DNA of 64,000 nt from Candidatus Obscuribacteraceae bacterium (GTDB lineage Bacteria > Cyanobacteriota > Vampirovibrionia > Obscuribacterales > Obscuribacteraceae), in assembly GCA_044229845.1 (NCBI GenBank), contig JBGASG010000005.1, forward strand, positions 349,078-413,077, written 5' to 3'. Positions 4,147-16,065 of this stretch are shown here, one piece after another. The notes below the pieces were generated by a model. The model searched no databases. It was not told where the DNA came from and was given only the letters and a program-made list of their open reading frames with translations. A program made the position numbers and the translations under genes. Each line of letters starts with the position of its first letter. Within the stretch, counting starts at the first letter, position 1.

Positions 4147-4713
4147 GCGAAACCAGCGCTGTTTCACCACCCCAAGCAGGTCTGAAAAGACGCGGAGATG
4201 TGATTTCCGATTACTTTTGCACGGTCGCTACAGATAGTGGTGGCACATGGCGCAAGTTGGTCGAGCTTGCTGGCATGCCGTGGTGGCGCCTGCGGTATCA
4301 AAGTGACATCGACAACCACACGTTGGCAACGGATTTTGTCGGCTCAAATGCCTACTGAAAACGCGGTTGAAAATAGTTTCAAATCCAAGCCGGGACATCC
4401 GATGCGTATGCTTTCGGCAACAGTTGGGATTACACGTGCTCAAGGTTAAACGAAAGACATCTTTCGTCAGCGCTGACTGACATCTGCAATTTGCCGGAAT
4501 CCCGCATGAATACGAGCATTTAACGCGTTACGCATTGTTTCGAAAAATGGGTTAGGTATCAGAATATGCGAGTTCAGCGCTGAAATAATATCTACGACGA
4601 AAAAGAAGCGGCAGCATGCGGATTCCCAAGACAACACGAATTTTCACTGTGACACCAACCGTGCGTGCCTGGGTTTATTGACCCGGGCATTTCTGTGAGA
4701 TAGGAAGCAAAGT

Positions 4714-6102
4714 ATGTATTTGACAGACAGGCTGATTAGCACCCAAGAAGGAAGTGCATCGCGCAATTTCTTCATTTCGGCTGTTTTCTGGTCGCTGATT
4801 GGCATGGGCGCCGGATTGTTTGCCGCATTGGAATTCTCATTCCCAGACCTCGTGCACAACGTACCGCAGCTCTCGATGCCACACCTGCGGATGCTGCACG
4901 TCAATGCTGTCGCCATCGGCTGGCTGTCGATGGCTTATATCGGTTCGATGTTCTACATGATTCCGTCTCTGACCAAAACCAAACTGTGGAGCGAGCGTCT
5001 GGGCAACATGACCATGTGGGCCTGGAATTTGCTCATGATCGGCGCATTTTGCACCCTGCTCAATGGTTACACGGAAGGTCGCGAGTATGCCGAGCTTGGA
5101 GCAGTTCTGGATACAGTGGCAGTGATCGGACTGATCTGTGTCGCTCTCAACTGCTACATGACCGTGATCAACCGCCGTGTCAAAAAGCTCTATGTCAGTC
5201 TCTGGTACTTCTTGGGCGCGCTCTTCTGGTTCCCGCTCGTCTACATCATTGGACAGCGCACCTTCGTGCAATTGAATGGCTTGAACGATGCCATCATCGG
5301 TTGGTTCTACGGACACAACATTCTTGGTATGTGGTTCACCACTGTCGGTGTCGGCATGATGTATTACCTCTTGCCACGTTTGACCAACAACCCGCTTTAC
5401 AGCCACGGTCTCTCTATGCTGGGCTTCTGGGGCATCGCCCTTTTCTATGCACCAACCGGCACGCACCACATCACCCAGTCGCCCGTCCCGGAGTGGCTGA
5501 AAGCAATCGCTATCATCTCGTCCATATTTCTCCTCGTTCCTGTTTTCACTGTCCTTACTAACTTCTTCATGACTATGAAGGGCAAGTGGCAGCTGATGGT
5601 GTCTGACATGACGCTGAGGTTCACCATCACATCAGCGATTTTCTATTACATTACTTGCGTGCAGGGACCTTTCCAGGCAACACGCTGGGTCAACTGGTAT
5701 CTGCACTTCACTCAGTGGGTTGTAGGACATGCTCACTTGGCGTTGCTGGGGACGTTCTCGTTTATCAGTGTGGCGGCCATCTACTACGGGTTGCCACGTC
5801 TGACCGGAAGACCCTGGTACAGCCAGGGTCTGATTCGTGCCCACTACTGGCTGAAGACATTGGGGTTCGGAGCGATGATGACCGTACTGACAATTGCCGG
5901 ACTCATCCAGTCGGCTGGTTGGCAGATGGGCATTCCGGTTGACCAATGGGGACTGCAGATTCGCCCTTACTGGTGGCTGAGATCCATAAGCGGCATCATG
6001 ATCTTCACTGGACAGTGCCTCTTTGCCTACAACATCTACCGCACACTCTACACACCGACCGCCGTCGCGTCGGTGAAGAAAGGTCAGGAGGTTAAGGCGT
6101 AA
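4714..6102 (+). CDS. ccoN: C-family (cbb3-type) haem-copper oxygen reductase subunit I
   Basis: RMLHVNAV (haem b His), GREYAE, WFYGHN (CuB His), FYAPTGTHH (helix VII Tyr and two CuB His), HFTQWVVGHAH; about 12 TM. Confidence 0.92.
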   Translation: MYLTDRLISTQEGSASRNFFISAVFWSLIGMGAGLFAALEFSFPDLVHNVPQLSMPHLRMLHVNAVAIGWLSMAYIGSMFYMIPSLTKTKLWSERLGNMTMWAWNLLMIGAFCTLLNGYTEGREYAELGAVLDTVAVIGLICVALNCYMTVINRRVKKLYVSLWYFLGALFWFPLVYIIGQRTFVQLNGLNDAIIGWFYGHNILGMWFTTVGVGMMYYLLPRLTNNPLYSHGLSMLGFWGIALFYAPTGTHHITQSPVPEWLKAIAIISSIFLLVPVFTVLTNFFMTMKGKWQLMVSDMTLRFTITSAIFYYITCVQGPFQATRWVNWYLHFTQWVVGHAHLALLGTFSFISVAAIYYGLPRLTGRPWYSQGLIRAHYWLKTLGFGAMMTVLTIAGLIQSAGWQMGIPVDQWGLQIRPYWWLRSISGIMIFTGQCLFAYNIYRTLYTPTAVASVKKGQEVKA

Positions 6103-7040
6103 TGAACGGCTATCGCCTGGGCGCATCAGGAATCATCATTACTTTCTTCACTATTATCACCGCCACCGTGCTACTGCCGATGGTGCTGTTCAATCCGAAG
6201 CCTTCCGGTCATGGCAACGACTATACTTCGGCAGCGGTGACCAAAGTTGCCGATCCGGTACGCGGACGGCAGATCTATGTGAGAGAAGGCTGCGTTTATT
6301 GCCACACTCAGTTCACACGCTTACAGGATCGTGGCTACGGACCGTTGGTGAAGGCCGGGGACTTCACCCAGGAAACTCCACACCAGCTTGGCACCGCACG
6401 GACCGGTCCGGATCTAACGAATGAGGGCGGAAGATTTCCATCCGAGTGGCAAAAAGCCCACCTGATTCAACCTCGGGCCGTGAAGCCTGGATCTATTATG
6501 CCGAGCTTCAGCTATTTGTCGGACCGAGATATGAATGACTTGGTGGCATATATTCAGACTCTTGGGAACATGCGGGTAGTCAATCACTTCGTGGAGGCGC
6601 CGGAGGAATACAAGGCATACCTGGCAAAGAAAACAGTTGATACTAATGCCGATGCCTCAGCTAACGCCGGTCGTGGCATCTACACGCAGAACTGCGCTGC
6701 CTGTCACGGACTGGAAGGATACGGCAACGGTCCCAACGCCATCTCGCTCGAGAAGAAGCCAGCCAACTTTACCCGTCCTTTTTATAAGCAGTATCCGGAT
6801 GACTTCTGGTTCTACCGCATAAGTGAAGGTGTAGCAGGCACACGTATGCCGCGTTTCGGTGAAGTGCTCTCCCCTGAGCAGCGCTGGTATCTGGTTGCAT
6901 ACCTCAAGACTCTGCCTCGCGATCAGGAAGTGGTGATTGACAAGCTTGATCAACTCAACCCGGTCGATGCAGTCAAGCTGCCGAAACTCTCCAAGCAATT
7001 GTGGGAACCAGCTTCCGGCGGAGACGAGGAGGGTCACTAA
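6102..7040 (+). CDS. ccoO: cbb3 subunit II (CcoO) fused to a second cytochrome c domain
   Basis: N-terminal TM, GRQIYVREGCVYCH, RTGPDL, SIMPSF; second haem site CAACH with RMP ligand; TAATG coupling to ccoN. Confidence 0.88.
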   Translation: MNGYRLGASGIIITFFTIITATVLLPMVLFNPKPSGHGNDYTSAAVTKVADPVRGRQIYVREGCVYCHTQFTRLQDRGYGPLVKAGDFTQETPHQLGTARTGPDLTNEGGRFPSEWQKAHLIQPRAVKPGSIMPSFSYLSDRDMNDLVAYIQTLGNMRVVNHFVEAPEEYKAYLAKKTVDTNADASANAGRGIYTQNCAACHGLEGYGNGPNAISLEKKPANFTRPFYKQYPDDFWFYRISEGVAGTRMPRFGEVLSPEQRWYLVAYLKTLPRDQEVVIDKLDQLNPVDAVKLPKLSKQLWEPASGGDEEGH

Positions 7041-7394
7041 ATGTGTCCAAATTGCATTCTTAACCAGGTTGGTCTTCAGTCGGGCATCTATGTTGCCTTC
7101 TTCGTTTGCGGGGTTTTCTTCTTAGCCGCCATGGGCGCCATGTGGTTTGCTTTCAAGAATGGTGATTTTGAAGACATGGAGGGTTCGAAATTCGACATGC
7201 TCGATGATGTTGAAGATGGAACGGAAGCAGCCCACGCCCGCGCGCGTTTCGAACGCGCCCGCCGCGAAAGAGCCGATGCGCGCGCTGAGTTCGGCGGAAA
7301 TGGTAGCGATGACATCAGTCACGCATCGACGGCATCATCAGCATCAGAATCATCAAGTTCAGACCGGGAGGAAGTAGAAAGTGCCAGACGATAA
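7041..7394 (+). CDS. CcoS/FixS-like oxidase maturation protein with N-terminal CxxC
   Basis: Single TM followed by W.FKNGDFEDME, resembling the CcoS GQFDD motif; position within the operon. Confidence 0.6.
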   Translation: MCPNCILNQVGLQSGIYVAFFVCGVFFLAAMGAMWFAFKNGDFEDMEGSKFDMLDDVEDGTEAAHARARFERARRERADARAEFGGNGSDDISHASTASSASESSSSDREEVESARR

Positions 7395-7623
7395 CGAATC
7401 GCTAGCCAAAGGTTCCGGATCGGCCGCAGGCGAAGTGGCCAAGAGCACCAAAGCCGCTGCCACCACAGCCGGTGCCTCCACTGAACCGGCCGAGGAAGGC
7501 CACTACGAAGTGGTCGCCGAATATCGCATCGGCGAAGGGCCACCGCCGATTGCATTGGTCGTTATGTTCGCCCTGATCGTCTTGTGGGCATCCGTCTCAT
7601 GGGTGCCATTCTTCGGTTATTAG
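7381..7623 (+). CDS. Small single-TM protein of the respiratory operon
   Basis: 80 aa with a C-terminal TM; overlaps the upstream gene in the same orientation. Confidence 0.6.
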   Translation: MPDDNESLAKGSGSAAGEVAKSTKAAATTAGASTEPAEEGHYEVVAEYRIGEGPPPIALVVMFALIVLWASVSWVPFFGY

Positions 7624-7668
7624 GCTCCGTATTTATACTAGTTAGAGCGCTGAAAGTATCCAACCAAA

Positions 7669-8706
7669 ATGAAACTCAAGAAGACCCTAGCTCCGATGAC
7701 TATCCTGCCGGCAATAGCGGCATCGTTTCTCGCAGGCTGCGGCGGCGATAACGGCGTAGTGACGCTGAAGGGCGATCAAGCCGCTCAGTTTGGCGACACC
7801 AAATTGACCCAGGCTCCGGTCGGTACCGTCCTCTATCCGGATGACAGACCGTCGGAAGACGACGGCAAAGCGCTCTACCAGGCGCAAAACTGCGCTTCCT
7901 GTCACGGCGCCGACGGCAGCTCGATAGCGCCCGGTGCCAAGGCAGCCCTGTCCGACCCTCTCTGGGCCGGCAAGAAACGCCCCGTCGAGGAGTTCATCTT
8001 CCTTACTTATGGCGACAAAAATATCAAAGGCCACGAGAAACCGCTGCGCGACACTCTCAGCCGCCGCGAAATCTGGAACCTGGTTGCTTACAGCCGCGCT
8101 CTGGCGGCGCCGCTTCTGACCAAAGAAGAGATGGATGCAGTACTGCCGGTCTTCGGTGCCAACTGCGCAGTCTGCCACGGCACCAAAGGCGATGGCGACG
8201 GACCGCTTATGCGTAACCTCGAGCCCGCCCCGGCTAACTTCCAGGTCTTCGCCCGCTTCTACGACCGCGATGACGATACGCTCTACGACCACATCGCCAA
8301 CGGCATTCGCTGGGAAGGCATGCCTAACTTCCTCGGCAAGAAAGATCCTCGCAACAAAGTAGAATTCGATCAAAAATATATTCGTAAGCTGGTTGCTTAC
8401 GTCCGCGCTTTCCACTTCAGCACTGCGCCGACACTAACGGCAAATTCCAAGCCCAGCACTGTGGGCGGCACTGATTCTTTACCGCCGACTCCGCCTACAG
8501 GCTCTGACCTCGGGCACAAAGACCAGACACAACCTGAACAAAGCAAAACTCCGGCCAGCGCAGGACAGCATGAAGTCCCCAGCTCTCCAGCCGAGTCAGC
8601 ATCTCCGAGTTCGGGATCGGCCACGGGTACTGAACCTATTAATTCACCGTCGTCTCCGTCGAGCAACGCAACGCCCGCCGGCGGAACGACAAATCCACAG
8701 CATTGA
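7669..8706 (+). CDS. Dihaem cytochrome c lipoprotein (CcoP/c1 functional analogue)
   Basis: Lipobox LAGC, CASCH and CAVCH, GMP ligand motif, Ser/Pro/Thr-rich tail. Confidence 0.85.
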   Translation: MKLKKTLAPMTILPAIAASFLAGCGGDNGVVTLKGDQAAQFGDTKLTQAPVGTVLYPDDRPSEDDGKALYQAQNCASCHGADGSSIAPGAKAALSDPLWAGKKRPVEEFIFLTYGDKNIKGHEKPLRDTLSRREIWNLVAYSRALAAPLLTKEEMDAVLPVFGANCAVCHGTKGDGDGPLMRNLEPAPANFQVFARFYDRDDDTLYDHIANGIRWEGMPNFLGKKDPRNKVEFDQKYIRKLVAYVRAFHFSTAPTLTANSKPSTVGGTDSLPPTPPTGSDLGHKDQTQPEQSKTPASAGQHEVPSSPAESASPSSGSATGTEPINSPSSPSSNATPAGGTTNPQH

Positions 8707-8716
8707 GGACAGGACA

Positions 8717-9283
8717 ATGGCAGAGGGAACATCTAGAAGATTACTTTTGAAGACGCTGGCGGCGGTGCCCCTGGCGCTCACGTTCGGTCTGGTGGCGTCA
8801 CCGATGGTGCGCTTCTTGCTGCCGACCCGCAAACCGCTCGACCTGCTGGGACCATCGGATCAGCCGTCGGCTATGAAGGACGTTTCCTTCAATCAGAGTG
8901 ACTTCGCCGAACCGTGGACCTGCCTGCCGTTCACCTTCGAGCAGAAATACTTAGAATACAATCCGGAAGGCATGGAAGTCCGCAAAGTGCCGGGCTTCGC
9001 AGTCAAACTGCCCTCCGGCGAAGTGGTCGCGTACAGCCGCATTTGCCCGCACCTGGGCTGCATCTTCAACTTCGTCAAAGATCCGGAAGAGTGTGCCAAA
9101 GGCTACAACTTCAAACCGAACGGACCGGTATTTGCCTGTCCGTGTCACTTGAGCGTGTATGACATCGCTCAAGCCGGCAAGGTCGTCAGTGGACCGGCTC
9201 CGCGTCCGCCACGCCAGTTTACGACCAAGACCGAAGGCGACAAGATCTCTATCGTTTCATTGGAGGCTGGGGGCATTGCCTGA
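8717..9283 (+). CDS. Rieske [2Fe-2S] subunit of a bc-type complex
   Basis: Tat motif SRRLLLK and TM; CPHLGC and CPCHLSVY boxes; GPAPRP. Start at ATG 8717 after AGGAC. Confidence 0.93.
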   Translation: MAEGTSRRLLLKTLAAVPLALTFGLVASPMVRFLLPTRKPLDLLGPSDQPSAMKDVSFNQSDFAEPWTCLPFTFEQKYLEYNPEGMEVRKVPGFAVKLPSGEVVAYSRICPHLGCIFNFVKDPEECAKGYNFKPNGPVFACPCHLSVYDIAQAGKVVSGPAPRPPRQFTTKTEGDKISIVSLEAGGIA

Positions 9284-11090
9284 TACATCAACCACTGCAA
9301 ATTCCTTTGGCAGCCGCCTATCGGGAGCACTGGTCAAGACCAATGACTGGTTGAAGACTCGCTTCAACGGTATTGATCTCTTCGATGAGCACTATGGGCT
9401 GGAAGCCAAAACGAACCCCTTCTATTCGTTGGGCTCGATTTTCTACCTGGTCTGGTTCATAGTCATGTTCACGGGACTCGTATTGATCATGTGGTACGTG
9501 CCGACGAAAGCTCAGGCCTTCGACTCGATTCTCCATATTCAGCACGGCATTCCGCTGGGCAACTTGATGCGCGGATGCCACAAGTACGGCGCGGACGCCA
9601 TGATCATCGCCGCCACCATGCGGCTTTTCCGCATGTTTCTTGCCGCCGACTACAAACCCGGCAAAGAGTTCAACATCGCTATTGCGCTTGTCACGCTCTT
9701 GCTCTCGATGTATTCCGGTCTGACCGGATATCTGCTCATCTGGAACCAGCGTGCATTTTGGGCGACCAAGGTGTTTGCCACCTTCCCGACTTATATGGAT
9801 CAGTTCCCGGTGATGGGCGACTTCTACATGCCGCTGGTCAAATCCGTGCACATGGGCTGGAATACAGCCGAGTTTCTGCTCGGAGCCGGCGGCGCCATCA
9901 CGCAGGAGACGATTACGCGTTTCTTCTCATTGCACCTGGCGTTCTCTCTGATACCACTGATTTTCGTCGAACTGTATTTCTACAAGACAGGCTTCAAGCG
10001 CGTTCCGCTCAACTGGATCAAGCGCTCGGTGATCATCCTCATGCTGATCATCGTTTCGATCATCATGCCGGCTGCGCTCGGACACCGCTCCAACCCGGAC
10101 GTAACGCCGCTGCCGATTTTGTCCGACTGGTACTTCCTCGGCTTGTATCAGATGTACAAATATCTGGAGCCGGTGGTGGCAACCGAAATCACGATGGTGA
10201 TTCCGCTCACCGTCGTCCTCCTTCCTTTCATCGATGTCTGGGTGACCGGACCGGAAAAAGATATCTGGAAGCGCCCGCTGATCTTTATGACCAGCATCAT
10301 GGGCTTCGTCTGCTGGATCGTCTTCTCGATTTTGATCATCGTCAACATCGCCAACATCCACAACGATCCGCCCTACTGGCGCTCGTTCCTCTGGTGCCTG
10401 CCTAACATCGGCATGCTCTGGCAACTGGTTGTTTACTTCGGTGAAAAGAACCCGGTTCTCAAAGCCAAGTTTGCGGTCGGCGCCATGGCGATGGCGATTG
10501 TCGCCGGCATTCAGACCATACTCGCCGTGTTCTACTACTACATGGCTCTCACGGAGATGTTCTTCTCACCGATCACTCAGTCGCTCACTTACTGGATGCT
10601 CCGTCCTTTCGTACCGGATGCCTCCCAGCTCGAGCAAGCAATGAAGACGGTGCAGCCTCTGTCGACCTACACCGCCTCGACCTACACCGCAACCTGGCAA
10701 GCCACTGTGCTGTCCAACTTCGTGGAGAAGGGCGGACCCGCGCAGAAAGCTGCTTACGACACAGTTTTGCAACTGTGCCAGAAAACATCGCCGCTCGATT
10801 TCATCTTCAAGGCGATTCCCACCTTCGATCCTAACCACCCTGTCTATGCCAGCATGACCGACTTCCTGGTCACCAACCGCTATGCATACGACTATGTGGT
10901 CTTCTGCGGGCGCATGAACGGCGATGTGAAACCGTACCCGCTTTATGTTCCGGAAGTTGACTGGTTCTGGATGGTGGGCGGTTTCGTGACCATGGTCGCC
11001 TGCTTGATCGTCTGGAACAAACTGCGCAATCTGCCGAAGACGGCTCCGGCAGCTCAAACGCAGACCGCACCGGCCACCAACCCGTCATAG
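9276..11090 (+). CDS. Cytochrome b paralogue 1 (b6 + subunit IV-like fusion with C-terminal extension)
   Basis: NPFYSLG, RGCHKYGA, TGYLLIWNQRAFWA, TRFFSLH, SDWYFL (PEWY-like). TTG start at 9276, 9 nt after GGAGG. Confidence 0.9.
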   Translation: MPDTSTTANSFGSRLSGALVKTNDWLKTRFNGIDLFDEHYGLEAKTNPFYSLGSIFYLVWFIVMFTGLVLIMWYVPTKAQAFDSILHIQHGIPLGNLMRGCHKYGADAMIIAATMRLFRMFLAADYKPGKEFNIAIALVTLLLSMYSGLTGYLLIWNQRAFWATKVFATFPTYMDQFPVMGDFYMPLVKSVHMGWNTAEFLLGAGGAITQETITRFFSLHLAFSLIPLIFVELYFYKTGFKRVPLNWIKRSVIILMLIIVSIIMPAALGHRSNPDVTPLPILSDWYFLGLYQMYKYLEPVVATEITMVIPLTVVLLPFIDVWVTGPEKDIWKRPLIFMTSIMGFVCWIVFSILIIVNIANIHNDPPYWRSFLWCLPNIGMLWQLVVYFGEKNPVLKAKFAVGAMAMAIVAGIQTILAVFYYYMALTEMFFSPITQSLTYWMLRPFVPDASQLEQAMKTVQPLSTYTASTYTATWQATVLSNFVEKGGPAQKAAYDTVLQLCQKTSPLDFIFKAIPTFDPNHPVYASMTDFLVTNRYAYDYVVFCGRMNGDVKPYPLYVPEVDWFWMVGGFVTMVACLIVWNKLRNLPKTAPAAQTQTAPATNPS

Positions 11091-11098
11091 GAGAGCCC

Positions 11099-11410
11099 AT
11101 GAAAAAGCACTGGTCTCTACGCTACTCGATGTTCATTTTCTCGGTCATCTCGCTTTCATGGTTTTTTGCGGGATGGCGGGGTATTAACGAACACGGTGCC
11201 GTTGCTGACTGGGCACTGCTTGTCGGTGCAACGCTTTTGACGGGCGGGCTCCTGGCTGTGCAGGGTTACTGGATCTATATAGAGGAACTGGCAAAGGGCA
11301 GTTTGAAACGGCGCATCGGAATTTTCGATCGCATCCACGCCAAGATGTCAGCTGGTACTGCGGCCGGTGCCTTGCAGGGCGCCACCACCCACAAGAAAGG
11401 GGAACTATAA
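11099..11410 (+). CDS. Small two-TM protein of the respiratory operon
   Basis: GGAG RBS, two hydrophobic segments, tight operon packing. Confidence 0.65.
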   Translation: MKKHWSLRYSMFIFSVISLSWFFAGWRGINEHGAVADWALLVGATLLTGGLLAVQGYWIYIEELAKGSLKRRIGIFDRIHAKMSAGTAAGALQGATTHKKGEL

Positions 11411-11797
11411 ATGGACCTCAACTCAAAGCCAGTCACCATGACCACCATCATAGTCTGCCTTGCTTTCGTCGGGCTGACATTCGTTGGTGCTTTGATGCTG
11501 CCGTCTTCCGAGTTGCTCGGGTGGGAAGTGATCACCCACAAACCCCAAGCCGGCGACTCACCGGTTTTGACATTCGAGCCAGCCAAGCACATAGCCACAG
11601 CCCTGACGAATCTGGGCGATGACGCCTGCAAAGCCATCTGGCACAAAGACTTCAAAACTCTGGCAGCAGAGGATCCCAACGTCCAATACTACGCATACTC
11701 TCTCTTCCTCGCGGCGGCACTATTAGCCGCGGGGGTGGCTTTCGCCGTTGTCGGACGGCTGGAGTCCGAAGAGCGTACTCTCATTCCAACCAAGTAA
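11411..11797 (+). CDS. Small two-TM protein of the respiratory operon
   Basis: Abuts the previous stop codon; N- and C-terminal TM segments. Confidence 0.65.
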   Translation: MDLNSKPVTMTTIIVCLAFVGLTFVGALMLPSSELLGWEVITHKPQAGDSPVLTFEPAKHIATALTNLGDDACKAIWHKDFKTLAAEDPNVQYYAYSLFLAAALLAAGVAFAVVGRLESEERTLIPTK

Positions 11798-11825
11798 GAA
11801 CTGAAGGCAAGGGAAATCAATCCAA

Positions 11826-12995
11826 ATGGCGTTATACACCGAACCCTTAAACCGAGCTAGCCAGCGTGTTGAACACTGGATCAATGCTGTGTCGACCAGC
11901 AAGTACAACCCCTTCTATTATCACGGCGCACTGCCGCAGTTTTTCCTGTGGGTGCTCTTCCTCTCGGGTCTGTTGCTGTTTGCCTATTACATCCCGACCA
12001 TCGATAACGCTTATTCATCGCCGCGGTTGATCAACGCCTACACCTCGGTCGAATACATCACCAAGACAATTCCTTTTGGTGTCGTGGTGCGCGCCATGCA
12101 CCGTTATGCAGGCGACGCGATGGTAATCACGATCATCCTGCACGCGTTGCGCGTGTGGTTCACCGATCGTTATCGTCAGTACCGCATTATTCAATGGCTC
12201 TCCGGTATCGTGCTGTTCCTTTTGGTGCTGGTCATCGGTCAGACCGGTTATTACCTGGTCTGGGATGAGCGCTCCTTGCTGCTCACCCGCATGACGGTAA
12301 CCGCGTTCGATTCATTGCCCATTATCGGCGAACCGCTCAAACTGTGGTTCCTCAACGGCAAAGACATCACCAACTTGACGCTGGCCAACTTCCTGTTCAT
12401 CCACATTGGTCTGTCATTCTCACTCTTGTTCGGCCTCTGGATTCACTACGTGCGCATGCAGCGCCCGGTGGTGACGCCACCGCCCGCGATGAACTACATT
12501 CTGATGGCTTTGATCATCGTGGCTGTATTCGCGTTTCCGATCACGACCGGCGGCCGAATGGAATTTCCGGCAGCCGACCTGACGAAACCGGCAACGCAAC
12601 TGTCCATCGACTGGTTCTTCCTCTTCCCGTACTGGATGATGCTGCACATGCCGATGGCGGCATTCTGGGGTGTGACCATTGTTGTCACCGCCCTCCTGTG
12701 CTACATCCCCTATCTCGTGAAGACTCCTCCCGTTCAAGCGGCGGAAGTGGTCGACACCAAGTGCACCGGCTGCTCGCTGTGCGCCAAAGACTGCCCGTAC
12801 GCCGCCATCGAAATGGTGCCCGCACCAGCCGGCAGCCGTTTCAAACTGCTGGCGACGATCATGCCCTATCGCTGCTCGGGCTGCGGAGTCTGTGTCGGTG
12901 CCTGCGCCTTCGACGCGGTCGACCTGCCCAACCTTCTCGATACTGATGTGACCACGAAGATCAAAGAGCTTGCCTCTTCCGGATCAACTACATAG
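11826..12995 (+). CDS. Cytochrome b paralogue 2 fused to a 2[4Fe-4S] ferredoxin domain
   Basis: Four haem His (RAMH-13x-H, FIH-13x-H), IDWFFL; C-terminal CTGCSLCAKDCP and CSGCGVCVGACA. Confidence 0.9.
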   Translation: MALYTEPLNRASQRVEHWINAVSTSKYNPFYYHGALPQFFLWVLFLSGLLLFAYYIPTIDNAYSSPRLINAYTSVEYITKTIPFGVVVRAMHRYAGDAMVITIILHALRVWFTDRYRQYRIIQWLSGIVLFLLVLVIGQTGYYLVWDERSLLLTRMTVTAFDSLPIIGEPLKLWFLNGKDITNLTLANFLFIHIGLSFSLLFGLWIHYVRMQRPVVTPPPAMNYILMALIIVAVFAFPITTGGRMEFPAADLTKPATQLSIDWFFLFPYWMMLHMPMAAFWGVTIVVTALLCYIPYLVKTPPVQAAEVVDTKCTGCSLCAKDCPYAAIEMVPAPAGSRFKLLATIMPYRCSGCGVCVGACAFDAVDLPNLLDTDVTTKIKELASSGSTT

Positions 12996-13014
12996 ATAAG
13001 GGAAACGAAACCAC

Positions 13015-13452
13015 ATGGCTGGCAAAGTTATCACTCTCATTTGTGAACGCTCGTGCGAACTGACCGCAGAGCACCTCAACGGCAACGAACTGAAAGGCGT
13101 GCCGGGAGTCAACGTGGTCAAGTATCCGTGCTCCGGCATGATTCAACCGCTGATGATCGAAGCGGCACTGAAAGCCGGCGCCGACGGTGTCGTAGTCACC
13201 GGTTGCGAGATCGGCGATTGCTACTACCGCGAAGGCAATCGCATGATTCGCGAGCGCTTGCTCGGCGACCGTCCGCCGACGTTGAAAAAGGGAACGGACC
13301 GTCGTCGCGTCATGGGTCTCTGGCTCTCCCGCGTTCAAACAGACCGCCTGATCAACGAAGTGAAGGAATTCCGCGCCAGCCTAGATAAGCTGCCGCCGCC
13401 CACACCAGAGGCAAAGAAACCTGCTGCTGCGCCCCCGAAAGCACAATCGTGA
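13015..13452 (+). CDS. MvhD/FlpD-like [2Fe-2S] protein (hydrogenase delta subunit family)
   Basis: ICERSC, YPCSGMI, GADGVVVTGCEIGDCYYREGN match the MvhD pattern. Confidence 0.85.
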   Translation: MAGKVITLICERSCELTAEHLNGNELKGVPGVNVVKYPCSGMIQPLMIEAALKAGADGVVVTGCEIGDCYYREGNRMIRERLLGDRPPTLKKGTDRRRVMGLWLSRVQTDRLINEVKEFRASLDKLPPPTPEAKKPAAAPPKAQS

Positions 13453-13461
13453 GAATGAAAA

Positions 13462-13584
13462 ATGGCCGCTAAAGAACCCAAACTAACCGACATTCAATAC
13501 ATCACCCGCTGGACCTGGTTCTTCCTTTTGTACTTCGCCTGCATTTTGCTGATCGCCTCGTTCGGTCTGGTAGCTGAATTCTAG
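13462..13584 (+). CDS. 40-aa single-TM peptide, last gene of the respiratory operon
   Basis: Manual translation MAAKEPKLTDIQYITRWTWFFLLYFACILLIASFGLVAEF*, 9 nt after the MvhD-like stop; below the ORF-track cutoff. Confidence 0.55.
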   Translation: MAAKEPKLTDIQYITRWTWFFLLYFACILLIASFGLVAEF

Positions 13585-13640
13585 AATCTAGTCCAGGCAT
13601 CCCGGCAACCCGGCGTCGTACAACAGCACTCTTTGAGGTC

Positions 13641-14336
13641 ATGCAGATGAAACTTCAGGAAGTGACGTCGCAGCTGCGTGCGCTCGGCACCACCCAGAAC
13701 ATCAAAACGTACCGCAGACACGGTGCTGATGACAACGTGTACGGCGTCAGCTTCGCCGATCTGAAAACGATGGCGAAGAAGATCAAAGTCGACCATCAGT
13801 TGGCGCTCGATCTGTGGGAGACCCAAATCGTCGACGCACGCTGTCTGGCTACCATGATCATCGATTGCGAACGGATTGATGAAACGCTGGCGCACCGCAT
13901 GCTCTCAGACCTGCGCATGTCCATGCTGATCGACTTACTCGGCGGCTGCGTAGCTAAAAGTCCTGTCGCCATGACTTTGATCGAAGACTGGATCAAGTCT
14001 GACCAGGACTCAGTTCGGCAATGCGGATATGTCGCGCTGTCCGTTTGTTTGAAGAACGGATCGATTTCTGACGAAACAGCATCGGCGTTTCTGCAGAAGA
14101 TCGAGAAAGAGATTCATGAATCTCCCAATCGCTCGAAACATGCGATGAATGCCGCCGTCATCGCAATCGGCGTTCACAAGCCGAAGTTGACCGATGTCGC
14201 CATTCAAACTGCCATCAATATAGGCACCGTGAAAGTCGATCATGGCGACACCGCCTGCAAAACTCCAAATGCGGCCGCCTACATCAAAAAGTCAGTGGCG
14301 GCGAAGAAACCGAAACTGAAAACCAACGTTACCTGA
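13641..14336 (+). CDS. DNA alkylation repair protein (AlkD-like HEAT repeat)
   Basis: YGVSFADLKTMAKKIKVDHQLALDLW, KHAMN, IGTVKVDHGDTACKTP. Confidence 0.8.
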   Translation: MQMKLQEVTSQLRALGTTQNIKTYRRHGADDNVYGVSFADLKTMAKKIKVDHQLALDLWETQIVDARCLATMIIDCERIDETLAHRMLSDLRMSMLIDLLGGCVAKSPVAMTLIEDWIKSDQDSVRQCGYVALSVCLKNGSISDETASAFLQKIEKEIHESPNRSKHAMNAAVIAIGVHKPKLTDVAIQTAINIGTVKVDHGDTACKTPNAAAYIKKSVAAKKPKLKTNVT

Positions 14337-15193
14337 TGGATGATTTGCTCGCGGCGCTGCTCGCTAAATTCGATGACAGCGAGCGTTATCGCGCTGTTCT
14401 ATTGGCAGGCAGTGCCGCCCGCGGTGACCTCACCACATACAGTGACATCGATTTAGTTTTCTTTTGCGACAATTTGCATGCGCTTGCCGGCGCAAGCGCG
14501 GCTGAGCGTCGTCGGCTCGCCTATCAGTTGAAGTACTTTGATGATGGAGAATCCACTGCCCTGCCGAGACTGGTAAGTCTTTCCGTACGATCCTTCGGCG
14601 ATTCAGCAAAGTCCATGTGGGACCCGGTAGAAGCGATTCGCTACGTTCAGGGCTTGCGCGATGGGCGCGTGTTGCGTGACACCGACGATCGGCTGGCGCA
14701 ATTGAAACAGGCTGCCGATGCGTTCGTGTGGGACAGCGAGATGCAGTCCGACGCCTGCCGGCGAGCCAGTTATGAACTGGCGGGTTGCGCAGAGGAGGTG
14801 CACAAGATTTTGCGCGGTCTGTCCACCGGCGATCAAGGCGCCATGTTCAACGGCGCCCTGGGGATTATTTTGAACATGCCGACGGTGGTGGCGCTTGCCC
14901 GAGGTGTCTTGTCAGGCGGGGAAAACGTCTTCAACTTTCAGGTAAGAGAGAGCATGGGAGAGCATTCTCGCTGGTCGCGCTGCCTGCAGCTGGCTTCCGG
15001 ATCCTTTCCGATGGCCTTGCCGCCTGGGATGCCCAACTTCCCGCCGATCGCTTTGCAAGCCATTGCAGCCTTCTGGCTGTTTGACGAGACCGCGGTCGTC
15101 ATAGACGATATCCTGCTTGCTGAAGACAGAGAAGTAGTGCAGGGTGCACTGGGTATAGCAAAAGCATCGATGCTCATCCCCAGCATCATTTAG
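14336..15193 (+). CDS. Nucleotidyltransferase domain protein (KNTase-like)
   Basis: GSAARGD...SDIDL pol-beta motif with a helical C-terminal domain (EEVHK). Confidence 0.75.
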   Translation: MDDLLAALLAKFDDSERYRAVLLAGSAARGDLTTYSDIDLVFFCDNLHALAGASAAERRRLAYQLKYFDDGESTALPRLVSLSVRSFGDSAKSMWDPVEAIRYVQGLRDGRVLRDTDDRLAQLKQAADAFVWDSEMQSDACRRASYELAGCAEEVHKILRGLSTGDQGAMFNGALGIILNMPTVVALARGVLSGGENVFNFQVRESMGEHSRWSRCLQLASGSFPMALPPGMPNFPPIALQAIAAFWLFDETAVVIDDILLAEDREVVQGALGIAKASMLIPSII

Positions 15194-15234
15194 TTTAGTC
15201 GTGTAGCGATCGCCGATCTTCTCCGGAGAATGAT

Positions 15235-16065
15235 ATGGAAAATGCCATCAGCCTACAGGTGCTCTTCAAGGAACTCCCTCAGCTGAGTCCGCCGATGTTG
15301 ACCGGTATGGGAGCACGCGCTTCTAAAGCTTTCAAGGAAGTGACTTACGATTTTCCTGCCGACACCACGGTGGCGGGAGCGGGATACGCATCATTCGGAC
15401 CGCACAAAGTGAAGTTCGATTTTGTGCAACATCCGCTGCCCGACAAGTACCGCGCGACTATCGTCGATCACATTCACACCTCGGCCGAAATAGCCGGACT
15501 GGTCGAAGACCACAAGGCGTACATCGAACTTTCGTACGAAGGTGAAGAAACCGACCCGGTTGCTAAGTACTGCATATTGACCGTCCTCGGCTCGATGCTT
15601 GCCACCCAGGATGCGCTCATTCTCGCAAACTGCAATTCTCACTGCGCACTAAACGCCGCCAAATTGTTGTGCATGTTCGCCGGCAAAGACTGGATGGAGA
15701 GCATTCAACAATTGCCGCTCGTTTATTTGTTCTGCGGTGCAGCAGCGTATGATGTGCCCAATGACGACTCGAAAGTGTGGCTGCGCACGCACGGCAACCA
15801 CATGTTGAACATTCCTGATATCGGCGCGGAGTTCGACGTCAGTCAGCACGAAGAACTTGTGCCCCAGGCTCTCGAGACTTTCGAAACTCTGATGGGCTAC
15901 ATGAATGCGCTCGGCGTTCCAATCGCGCCCGGGCATACGGTCGAAGGCTCGACGATGATGATTACTGTCAAAGAGAAACCGGAGGCCACCGGCGAAATCT
16001 ACGACGCTCCGTCGGGACTCCTGACGCTGGCGTTCTCGCCGAAACCGGTGAGCACGGCAACCTGA
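15235..16065 (+). CDS. Hypothetical protein, DUF4261-like
   Basis: C-terminal WLRTHG..LNIPD...PGHT pattern; GGAG RBS. Confidence 0.55.
   Translation: MENAISLQVLFKELPQLSPPMLTGMGARASKAFKEVTYDFPADTTVAGAGYASFGPHKVKFDFVQHPLPDKYRATIVDHIHTSAEIAGLVEDHKAYIELSYEGEETDPVAKYCILTVLGSMLATQDALILANCNSHCALNAAKLLCMFAGKDWMESIQQLPLVYLFCGAAAYDVPNDDSKVWLRTHGNHMLNIPDIGAEFDVSQHEELVPQALETFETLMGYMNALGVPIAPGHTVEGSTMMITVKEKPEATGEIYDAPSGLLTLAFSPKPVSTAT

Follow-up and report, generated by a model that had tools for sequence, protein, structure and literature searches.

The b2-mvhD locus and its iron-sulfur arm

A stretch of 64,000 nucleotides (nt) from a Candidatus Obscuribacteraceae bacterium (assembly GCA_044229845.1, contig JBGASG010000005.1), hereafter the window, was analysed for a co-directional gene run (4714-13584, +) that encodes a C-family oxidase, a Rieske protein and two cytochromes b, here called b1 and b2, and that ends in the b2 gene, an MvhD gene and a 40-aa peptide. 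The b2 open reading frame (ORF; 11826-12995, +) codes for 389 aa, in which Pfam places Cytochrome_B at 23-211 and Fer4 at 308-364, with the haem histidines at 92, 106, 193 and 207 and two CxxCxxCxxxC motifs at 313-323 and 350-360. Conservation was assessed in 46 b1/b2 pairs, taken from the window, 20 relatives and 25 of the 26 b1-bearing loci of a genome scan (L044 was dropped by the length filter). These pairs come from Vampirovibrionia (23), Holophagaceae (10), Deinococcales (9), Bacillota (3) and Armatimonadota (1), and they are related rather than independent.

An earlier, sequence-only reading of this DNA had noted the two cysteine motifs behind helix F of the second cytochrome b and had taken the next gene for an MvhD-type protein, and both observations stand. 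The motifs lie in the Fer4 domain, with all eight cluster cysteines invariant in 46/46 homologues. The following ORF (145 aa), which begins 19 nt downstream of b2, matches Pfam FlpD (E 4e-23) and the solved MvhD 5ODC_D (4e-16), with Cys 10, 39, 64 and 69 kept in 21/21 aligned Vampirovibrionia copies. Four conserved cysteines together with an FlpD score above the cut-off place it in the family as a putative [2Fe-2S] protein.

The AlphaFold model of b2 (pLDDT 83.8) has the ferredoxin domain behind six long helices of membrane type, from A (36-53) to F (277-297). The top Foldseek matches were bc1 cytochromes b (E about 1e-9), and a search of solved structures with the D-F segment returned chance matches only. 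Cytochromes b all have their N-terminus inside, and with six helices the b2 chain therefore ends inside as well. The mean content of Lys plus Arg per residue was 0.11-0.34 in the predicted inside segments versus 0.04-0.07 in the outside loops across the 46 sequences. In homologues with MvhD fused to the same chain, the MvhD domain is often followed by a further membrane helix and, in part of them, by a c-type cytochrome, which is necessarily outside. The number of helices, the positive-inside bias and this extra helix with its cytochrome together predict that the iron-sulfur arm of b2 is cytoplasmic, as the sequence-only reading had assumed, with its cluster ligands intact.

The Fer4 domain aligns with positions 571-645 of the HdrA2 profile and MvhD with the adjoining 649-775, and the Fer4 domain also matches solved HdrA structures (5ODC_A, 571-634; 7BKB_A, 593-663). 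Full-length HdrA was detected in 0/41 genomes searched (the window's own genome is 88% complete) and in just 2/17 hosts from other phyla. HdrA was thus ruled out as a partner, every HdrA2-profile match of E 1e-10 or better in the 41 genomes being this Fer4 or MvhD. Because no full HdrA was found there, the arm is, by homology, a transplanted HdrA-terminal module and not an adaptor to HdrA. A text search for longer MvhD fusions gave four uninformative matches.

Complementary losses in b1 and b2

The low-potential (bL) and high-potential (bH) haem ligands and the quinol-oxidation (Qo) site were never all found within one cytochrome b of the operon. In b1, the helix-B bH histidine is present in 0/46 sequences (R in 38, K in 8) and the helix-D one in 2/46, and the helix-C pocket retains its Trp in 4/46 and its Gly in 12/46. 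In a profile alignment of b1 to b6, R and Y coincide with the bH histidines, and the alignment of b2 to b6 confirms the register. The bL ligands, the SDWY motif (46/46) and the ef Tyr are all retained in b1, with a cd1 conservation of 0.94. By comparison, b2 keeps the four histidines and the pocket Trp and Gly in 46/46, its Qo motif occurs in 14 variants, and the conservation of its ef region is 0.42. At the small-residue position of cd1, which we take to be that of R. capsulatus G158, b1 has Ala in 46/46 and b2 a bulky L, I, M or V in 46/46. The Qo site, consisting of the cd1 helix and the PEWY-type motif, is therefore a feature of b1 only.

Because b1 is without bH ligands and b2 without Qo features, neither of them is, judged by residues, able to run a Q-cycle alone, and it is very probable that the two form one heterodimer. 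The sequence-only reading had missed this complementarity; the electron chain would probably run across the heterodimer. A recent duplication was ruled out as the origin of the pair, b1 and b2 being old, separate clades with a support of 100/99 each. At the level of the lost bH, R155 (9621-9623) and E271 (9969-9971) of b1 form an invariant basic/acidic pair on helices B and D, which may be a pocket-filling salt bridge or a proton path.

No haem-cn cysteine was found in b2 upon alignment to b6, and no conserved His or Asp lies between H207 and helix E in the 46 sequences, the D-E linker being 11 residues long in the AlphaFold model. The genome's own canonical PEWY cytochrome b has a long linker, with an Asp 36 residues after the bH histidine. 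The canonical quinone-reduction (Qi) site thus appears to be missing from b2, and a non-canonical one is possible. The earlier proposal that an iron-sulfur chain replaces or supplements Qi is in keeping with the loss of the canonical ligands in b2, but it had overlooked that b1 is without bH and b2 without Qo.

Rieske signature, quinone and energetics

The Rieske signature carries Ser in 46/46 and Tyr in 45/46 sequences (S-Y in 45/46), and the ordinary PEWY complex of the same genome has a G-Y Rieske. By the rule given in the survey PMC4122944, S-Y corresponds to a Rieske potential above 260 mV, and PDWY-type complexes are reported there with low- or mid-potential Rieske proteins only.

Markers of the futalosine menaquinone pathway (MqnA/D or MqnC) were detected in all 30 module-bearing Vampirovibrionia genomes, the MqnA/D family in 29/30 and MqnC at a strict threshold in just 7/30. 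MqnC-like matches occur in 13/17 hosts from other phyla, and MenD exceeded the cut-off in 0/41 genomes. A plastoquinone pathway is reported in Cyanobacteriia only, according to the account in PMC13386864. The gene content suggests that the hosts use menaquinone. Assuming menaquinone at -75 mV, a Rieske potential of 280-320 mV and a membrane potential of 130 mV, the computed potential of an N-side acceptor is -300 to -340 mV, whereas with ubiquinone it would not fall below about 0 mV.

Operon organisation and distribution

The features of the operon are listed in Table 1. The true start of b1 is probably the TTG at 9276, and the dihaem cytochrome c behind the two small membrane-protein genes is the likely link from Rieske to oxidase. 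The 40-aa peptide directly after mvhD was previously unannotated, has a conserved C-terminal motif and is a candidate small subunit of the complex.

Table 1. Features of the oxidase-Rieske-cytochrome b operon in the window.
Feature	Position	Strand	Evidence
CcoN-like C-family (cbb3-type) haem-copper oxidase subunit I	4714..6102	+	Pfam COX1; NCBIfam ccoN E 5.7e-84, under equivalog cut-off
CcoO-like dihaem cytochrome c	6102..7040	+	FixO + Cytochrom_C; two CxxCH
CcoS/FixS-like small membrane protein	7041..7394	+	Pfam FixS E 1.3e-5; present in 20/20 fetched operons
Small single-helix membrane protein, no assigned function	7381..7623	+	No Pfam; present in 20/20 fetched operons
Dihaem cytochrome c, probably lipoprotein	7669..8706	+	Two CxxCH, Cytochrome_CBB3
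Rieske [2Fe-2S] protein, S-Y high-potential signature	8717..9283	+	Pfam Rieske; both boxes intact
b1, cytochrome b paralogue 1	9159..11090	+	Qo motifs and bL ligands kept; bH ligands replaced (R155, Y273)
Small membrane protein, no assigned function	11099..11410	+	No Pfam; syntenic in Vampirovibrionia and other phyla
Small two-helix membrane protein, no assigned function	11411..11797	+	No Pfam; weakly conserved, syntenic
b2 membrane domain, helices A-F	11826..12716	+	All four haem His; degenerate Qo; haem-cn Cys missing; D-E linker short
Fused 2[4Fe-4S] ferredoxin domain of b2	12738..12926	+	Homologous to C-terminal ferredoxin domain of HdrA
MvhD/FlpD-type [2Fe-2S] protein	13015..13452	+	Pfam FlpD
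40-aa single-helix membrane peptide, operon end	13462..13584	+	BLASTP match, same place in 18/20 fetched operons

Named close homologues belong to Candidatus Obscuribacterales/Melainabacteria. In all 20 relatives' regions fetched, which were picked among the 30 genomes with full-length b2, the gene order from ccoN to mvhD is identical. FlpD is a single-copy gene in 30/41 genomes, the same 30 that carry full-length b2, and lies immediately behind b2 in 29/30, with a contig break separating the two in the remaining one; the pairing of b2 and MvhD is not chance, because FlpD tracks full-length b2 genome by genome. In a 58% complete genome, the b2 gene looks frameshifted (G002:C3:284438-285559), possibly through an assembly error. 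At E 1e-60, b1 was absent from 120 other genomes sampled across the phylum, none of them of the window's family.

A promoter scan of the operon gave chance-level results. Contigs from RNA libraries (4/23 runs, 2 studies) cover 4304-13774 patchily and 14226-16000 not at all; they span several gene junctions, the orf128-b2 junction among them, and none of the 32 contig pieces listed (43 more being unlisted) spans the b2-mvhD junction.

The wider cytochrome b-Fer4-MvhD family

Among the best 80 of 560 loci confirmed in a scan of GTDB genomes, 50 encode a fused cytochrome b-Fer4-MvhD protein and carry neither b1 nor Rieske. The other 30, which are non-fused, have b1 in 26, Rieske in 25 and a C-family oxidase in 19 within the available DNA; the four without b1 are cut by contig ends. 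Their hosts are Holophagaceae, Deinococcales, Bacillota, Armatimonadota and Melainabacteria. Of the best 150 family representatives, 120 have MvhD in the same chain and 146 the four histidines. The tree, built without the named reference proteins of Kao and Hunte 2014 or Dibrova et al. 2017, unites b2, the fused and the FNR-fused proteins in one clade (support 100/99). Both trees derived the fused family from split b2, but without significance (p-AU 0.216).

Most fused homologues (P0136, P0141, P0150 and others) end, after MvhD, in a membrane helix and an outside domain of about 130 aa with no Pfam match, sometimes followed by a cytochrome c; this domain is possibly a Rieske stand-in or a docking arm to the oxidase.

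Search for the cytoplasmic partner

No hdrA, hydrogenase or formate dehydrogenase (Fdh) gene lies in the window, as the sequence-only reading had stated, and the remainder of the genome holds a NiFe hydrogenase on contig C20 and FdhF/YdeP-family genes on C1 and C6. None of these was retained as partner. The NiFe hydrogenase is sulfhydrogenase-type and on another contig, with matches in 20/30 module-bearing genomes and none in 10/30, three of which are 92-96% complete; FeFe hydrogenase gave no match, and the two FdhF/YdeP-family genes are unlinked to the operon. The suggested input of H2 or formate through an Mvh/Fdh-type partner was consequently abandoned, there being no Mvh-type enzyme and no NiFe hydrogenase match in those 10 genomes.

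NuoF-like genes were detected in 6/30 module-bearing Vampirovibrionia versus 16/17 hosts from other phyla, so the module as a substitute for NuoEFG would suit the former and not the latter, and was rejected. The sole FNR-type NAD-binding domain found in the genome is the hydrogenase gamma subunit. A complex I-like operon (G000:C17:9511-16028; NuoA, B, C, D, H, I, J and K) was observed in the window's genome, in which NuoF had no match; its NuoI carries a long repetitive Ala/Lys/Pro/Glu tail.

Some fused relatives occur near NAD(P) flavoproteins, NuoF-like at L063 and L101 and as FNR-type modules on a second cytochrome b at L071, L091 and L113. At L063:2833-8511 and L101:6523-11446 (Nitrospirota), two fused cytochrome b-Fer4-MvhD genes flank a NuoF-like FMN/NADH protein, with haem-copper oxidase genes beside them, and these two loci are the best lead to the partner of the arm.

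Other respiratory genes in the genome

The operon's Rieske gene has a second, solitary copy (71% identity) at G000:C19:122441-123004, with no cytochrome b beside it. The ordinary PEWY Rieske/cytochrome b pair with its G-Y Rieske (L133; G000:C20:114587-118842) lies between two membrane proteins without NCBIfam matches at 1e-20, one of them with a C-terminal CxxCH; both presumably resemble cytochrome bd. The nitrate reductase operon (G000:C20:96332-98772) contains a NarI-like membrane protein that seems to be joined to a Rieske domain and, behind it, a third cytochrome b (PEWY). A second C-family oxidase is a single 878-aa CcoN-CcoO-cytochrome c fusion (G000:C1:894160-896796), whose neighbours, named by inspection, are a sulfite-oxidase-like molybdoprotein, a small cytochrome c and a rhodanese/hydrolase gene.

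Proposed mechanism and its alternatives

The chances are about evenly balanced that the heterodimer bifurcates menaquinol, sending one electron to O2 and the other through the iron-sulfur arm and MvhD to a cytoplasmic acceptor. Quinol bifurcation towards the cytoplasm had already been raised by the sequence-only reading; the energetics would permit it, and the bifurcation itself is a proposal. In such a scheme, b1 and b2 would dimerise like the bc1 dimer, and menaquinol would be oxidised at a single Qo site, in b1. The first electron would pass from the Rieske protein through the dihaem cytochromes c and the cbb3-type oxidase to O2, and the second from bL of b1 to bL and then bH of b2, the two [4Fe-4S] clusters and the [2Fe-2S] cluster of MvhD. 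The final acceptor would be soluble and encoded outside the operon, namely an NAD(P)-linked flavoprotein, ferredoxin/flavodoxin or a complex I without NuoEFG, and the outcome would be an O2-driven production of low-potential reductant from the menaquinone pool, instead of the return of electrons to quinone. Outward flow is favoured because the electron order described for Hdr arms (donor, HA1/HA2, MvhD [2Fe-2S], flavin; PMC12350162, PMC13518236, PMC6019823) matches. The whole proposal, that is, a natural and obligate heterodimeric complex III in five phyla, wholly dependent on bL-bL transfer, with an HdrA-derived arm in place of Qi and an O2-driven formation of NAD(P)H or reduced ferredoxin from menaquinol, is put forward tentatively, at somewhat less than even probability.

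Several points weigh against outward bifurcation. No acceptor gene was found in the operon, and neither hydrogenase nor NuoF-like nor FdhF/YdeP genes track the module; a complex forced to export every second electron would stall once its acceptor is full. An acceptor potential of -300 to -340 mV is marginal for NAD(P)+ and insufficient for a typical ferredoxin at standard state unless the pools are poised. The S-Y signature is not diagnostic, because PEWY/menaquinone complexes, as surveyed in PMC4122944, cover all Rieske potentials. At 50/80 loci the b2-type module works without Rieske-type Qo bifurcation. A histidine five residues past H207 in 11/46 b2 sequences (absent from the window's b2), together with an invariant Asp262, suggests that a quinone site may persist in b2. 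In b1, the bH-pocket residues G92 (45/46) and R158 (46/46) and the invariant E271 are kept, which may indicate an unusual haem ligation. The evidence of transcription from RNA contigs is a weak hint, the runs having been selected together with this stretch. Finally, the donor enzymes of Hdr systems dock on the MvhD and HdrA termini (PMC12350162, PMC13518236, PMC6019823).

This last point would suit an unlikely though serious alternative, in which the same heterodimer takes electrons inwards from a cytoplasmic donor (ferredoxin, hydrogenase or an NAD(P)H flavoprotein) by way of MvhD and Fer4 and uses them to reduce quinone at a non-canonical site close to bH of b2, so that the second electron is supplied, in an 'activated Q-cycle' of the kind suggested for haem cn in b6f. 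Such a flow would be downhill and thermodynamically unobjectionable, and the His at H207+5 (11/46) would be at hand; the N-side is the best conserved face of b2 (bc loop 0.73), and since complex I here is without NuoEFG, an extra entry for cytoplasmic electrons would be useful. However, b2 has neither conserved canonical Qi ligands nor the cn cysteine, no donor is consistently present (NiFe hydrogenase 20/30, NuoF-like 6/30), and a headless complex I is no requirement for the module, given the NuoF-like genes in 16/17 hosts from other phyla. A high-potential Rieske would also be unnecessary, with about 250 mV wasted per electron.

It is improbable that an ordinary Q-cycle runs through a non-canonical Qi in b2 with the arm as a side branch (a buffer, an overflow valve or a redox sensor) that keeps superoxide at Qo low when O2 fluctuates. 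Electrons could be stored in the three clusters, no split operon inspected holds a partner gene, and C-family oxidases suit low, fluctuating O2, as stated in PMC6349859; yet the cluster ligands are conserved over five phyla and the module is linked with NAD(P) flavoproteins in relatives, which points to through-flow, and the Qi ligands are not conserved. Quite improbable, too, are separate homodimers, with b1 and Rieske as a complex III whose bH is unusually ligated and with b2-Fer4-MvhD as an independent menaquinone/cytoplasm oxidoreductase. The retained G92, R158 and E271 of b1, the old and separate clades, and the b2-type proteins without b1 or Rieske at 50 of the best 80 loci would all fit. 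Nevertheless, the bH histidine position of b1 is occupied by Arg in 38/46, and to our knowledge Arg is not a haem ligand; the helix-C pocket Trp and Gly are mostly lost, a b1 homodimer would be without exit from bL, and all 26 scanned b1 genes have b2 downstream.

Whatever the direction of flow, a natural cross-wired complex would be a direct test system for bL-bL electron transfer, whose role in complex III is described as a long-standing open question probed so far with engineered asymmetric enzymes (PMC7908018). If the flow is outward, menaquinone-using microaerobes would spend O2 to obtain low-potential reductant and would not need to run complex I in reverse; the same chemistry has been put forward for anammox complexes, where it is unproven (PMC12954380). 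Under the proposal, the complex III-IV operon of Melainabacteria, which carries a b6f-like annotation in the debate on the origin of aerobic respiration beside Cyanobacteria, would have to be read differently. If true, the proposal would concern the complex on which the closest non-photosynthetic relatives of oxygenic cyanobacteria mainly rely for aerobic respiration. It would also open a way into the large and uncharacterised family of cytochrome b-Fer4-MvhD proteins.

Comparison with known systems

The Melainabacteria complex III/IV operon was described as b6f-like by Matheus Carnevali et al. 2019 (PMC6349859), and two cytochrome bc proteins in it are cited in the preprint 10.1101/531145. 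The PDWF-FeS clade of Kao and Hunte 2014, as presented in PMC4122944, consists of a cytochrome b with a 4Fe-4S and an MvhD domain and has no Rieske in its clusters; it is probably the same as subfamily H of Dibrova et al. 2017, called functionally unknown in a survey that counted PF02662 five times among cytochrome b neighbourhoods (PMC5600118). The domain order, the four histidines and an xDWF-like motif are shared with that clade, whereas here MvhD has a gene of its own and the cluster also encodes a C-family oxidase, a Rieske protein and a further, bH-less cytochrome b; Rieske was present in 20/20 fetched operons and 25/30 non-fused loci, compared with 0/50 fused loci.

The arm resembles that of Hdr-Mvh/Fdh/Elp complexes in having Fer4 and then MvhD, in the order of the HdrA2 profile (571-775), but it is without the HdrA flavoprotein core, HdrBC and MvhAG and sits on a membrane cytochrome in an oxidase operon. 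Two cytochrome b-like genes beside a haem-copper enzyme are also found in the eNOR operon of Ferrigenium straubiae, for which cytochrome b-FeS and cytochrome b-FeS-FAD-NADH proteins are reported and NAD+ reduction is proposed (bioRxiv 10.64898/2026.01.22.701106). That system differs in the eNOR and in an encoded NAD-binding module, and at comparable loci both cytochromes have four histidines and no Rieske was found.

In the anammox Rieske/cytochrome b complexes, menaquinone is combined with an unusually high-potential Rieske, and bifurcation to a cytoplasmic iron-sulfur chain and NAD(P)+ has been proposed (PMC12954380). The same mismatch appears here, from genes and signature. Those complexes are, however, b6f-like homodimers with haem cn, an encoded flavoprotein and nitrite as the proposed sink, as opposed to a proposed heterodimer with an HdrA-type arm, O2 as sink and no encoded flavoprotein. 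The fold, the encoded Rieske, the Qo motifs (in b1) and the link to cytochrome c and oxidase are shared with bc1 and b6f, whose homodimers hold Qo, bL, bH and Qi in every monomer; here neither subunit has the complete set, the cn cysteine is missing, b2 has six helices, and a cytoplasmic iron-sulfur arm is added.

The pattern of losses mirrors the engineered cross-inactivated bc1 dimers of Ekiert et al. 2014, in which an H212N half and a G158W half are reported to work in vivo and support growth via the bL-bL bridge (PMC4152375). In both cases bH is lost in one half and Qo in the other, and the engineered function depends on bL-bL transfer, but the laboratory construct ends at a normal Qi, whereas the natural gene pair has a chain that apparently ends in iron-sulfur clusters. 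No description of the b1/b2 asymmetry was found in the literature searched, with Soo et al. 2017, Dibrova et al. 2013 and ten Brink et al. 2013 outside its coverage. The cytochrome b-Fer4-MvhD fusion is thus already known, and what is new is the proposed heterodimer of complementary subunits, in which a high-potential Rieske goes together with an iron-sulfur arm instead of Qi.

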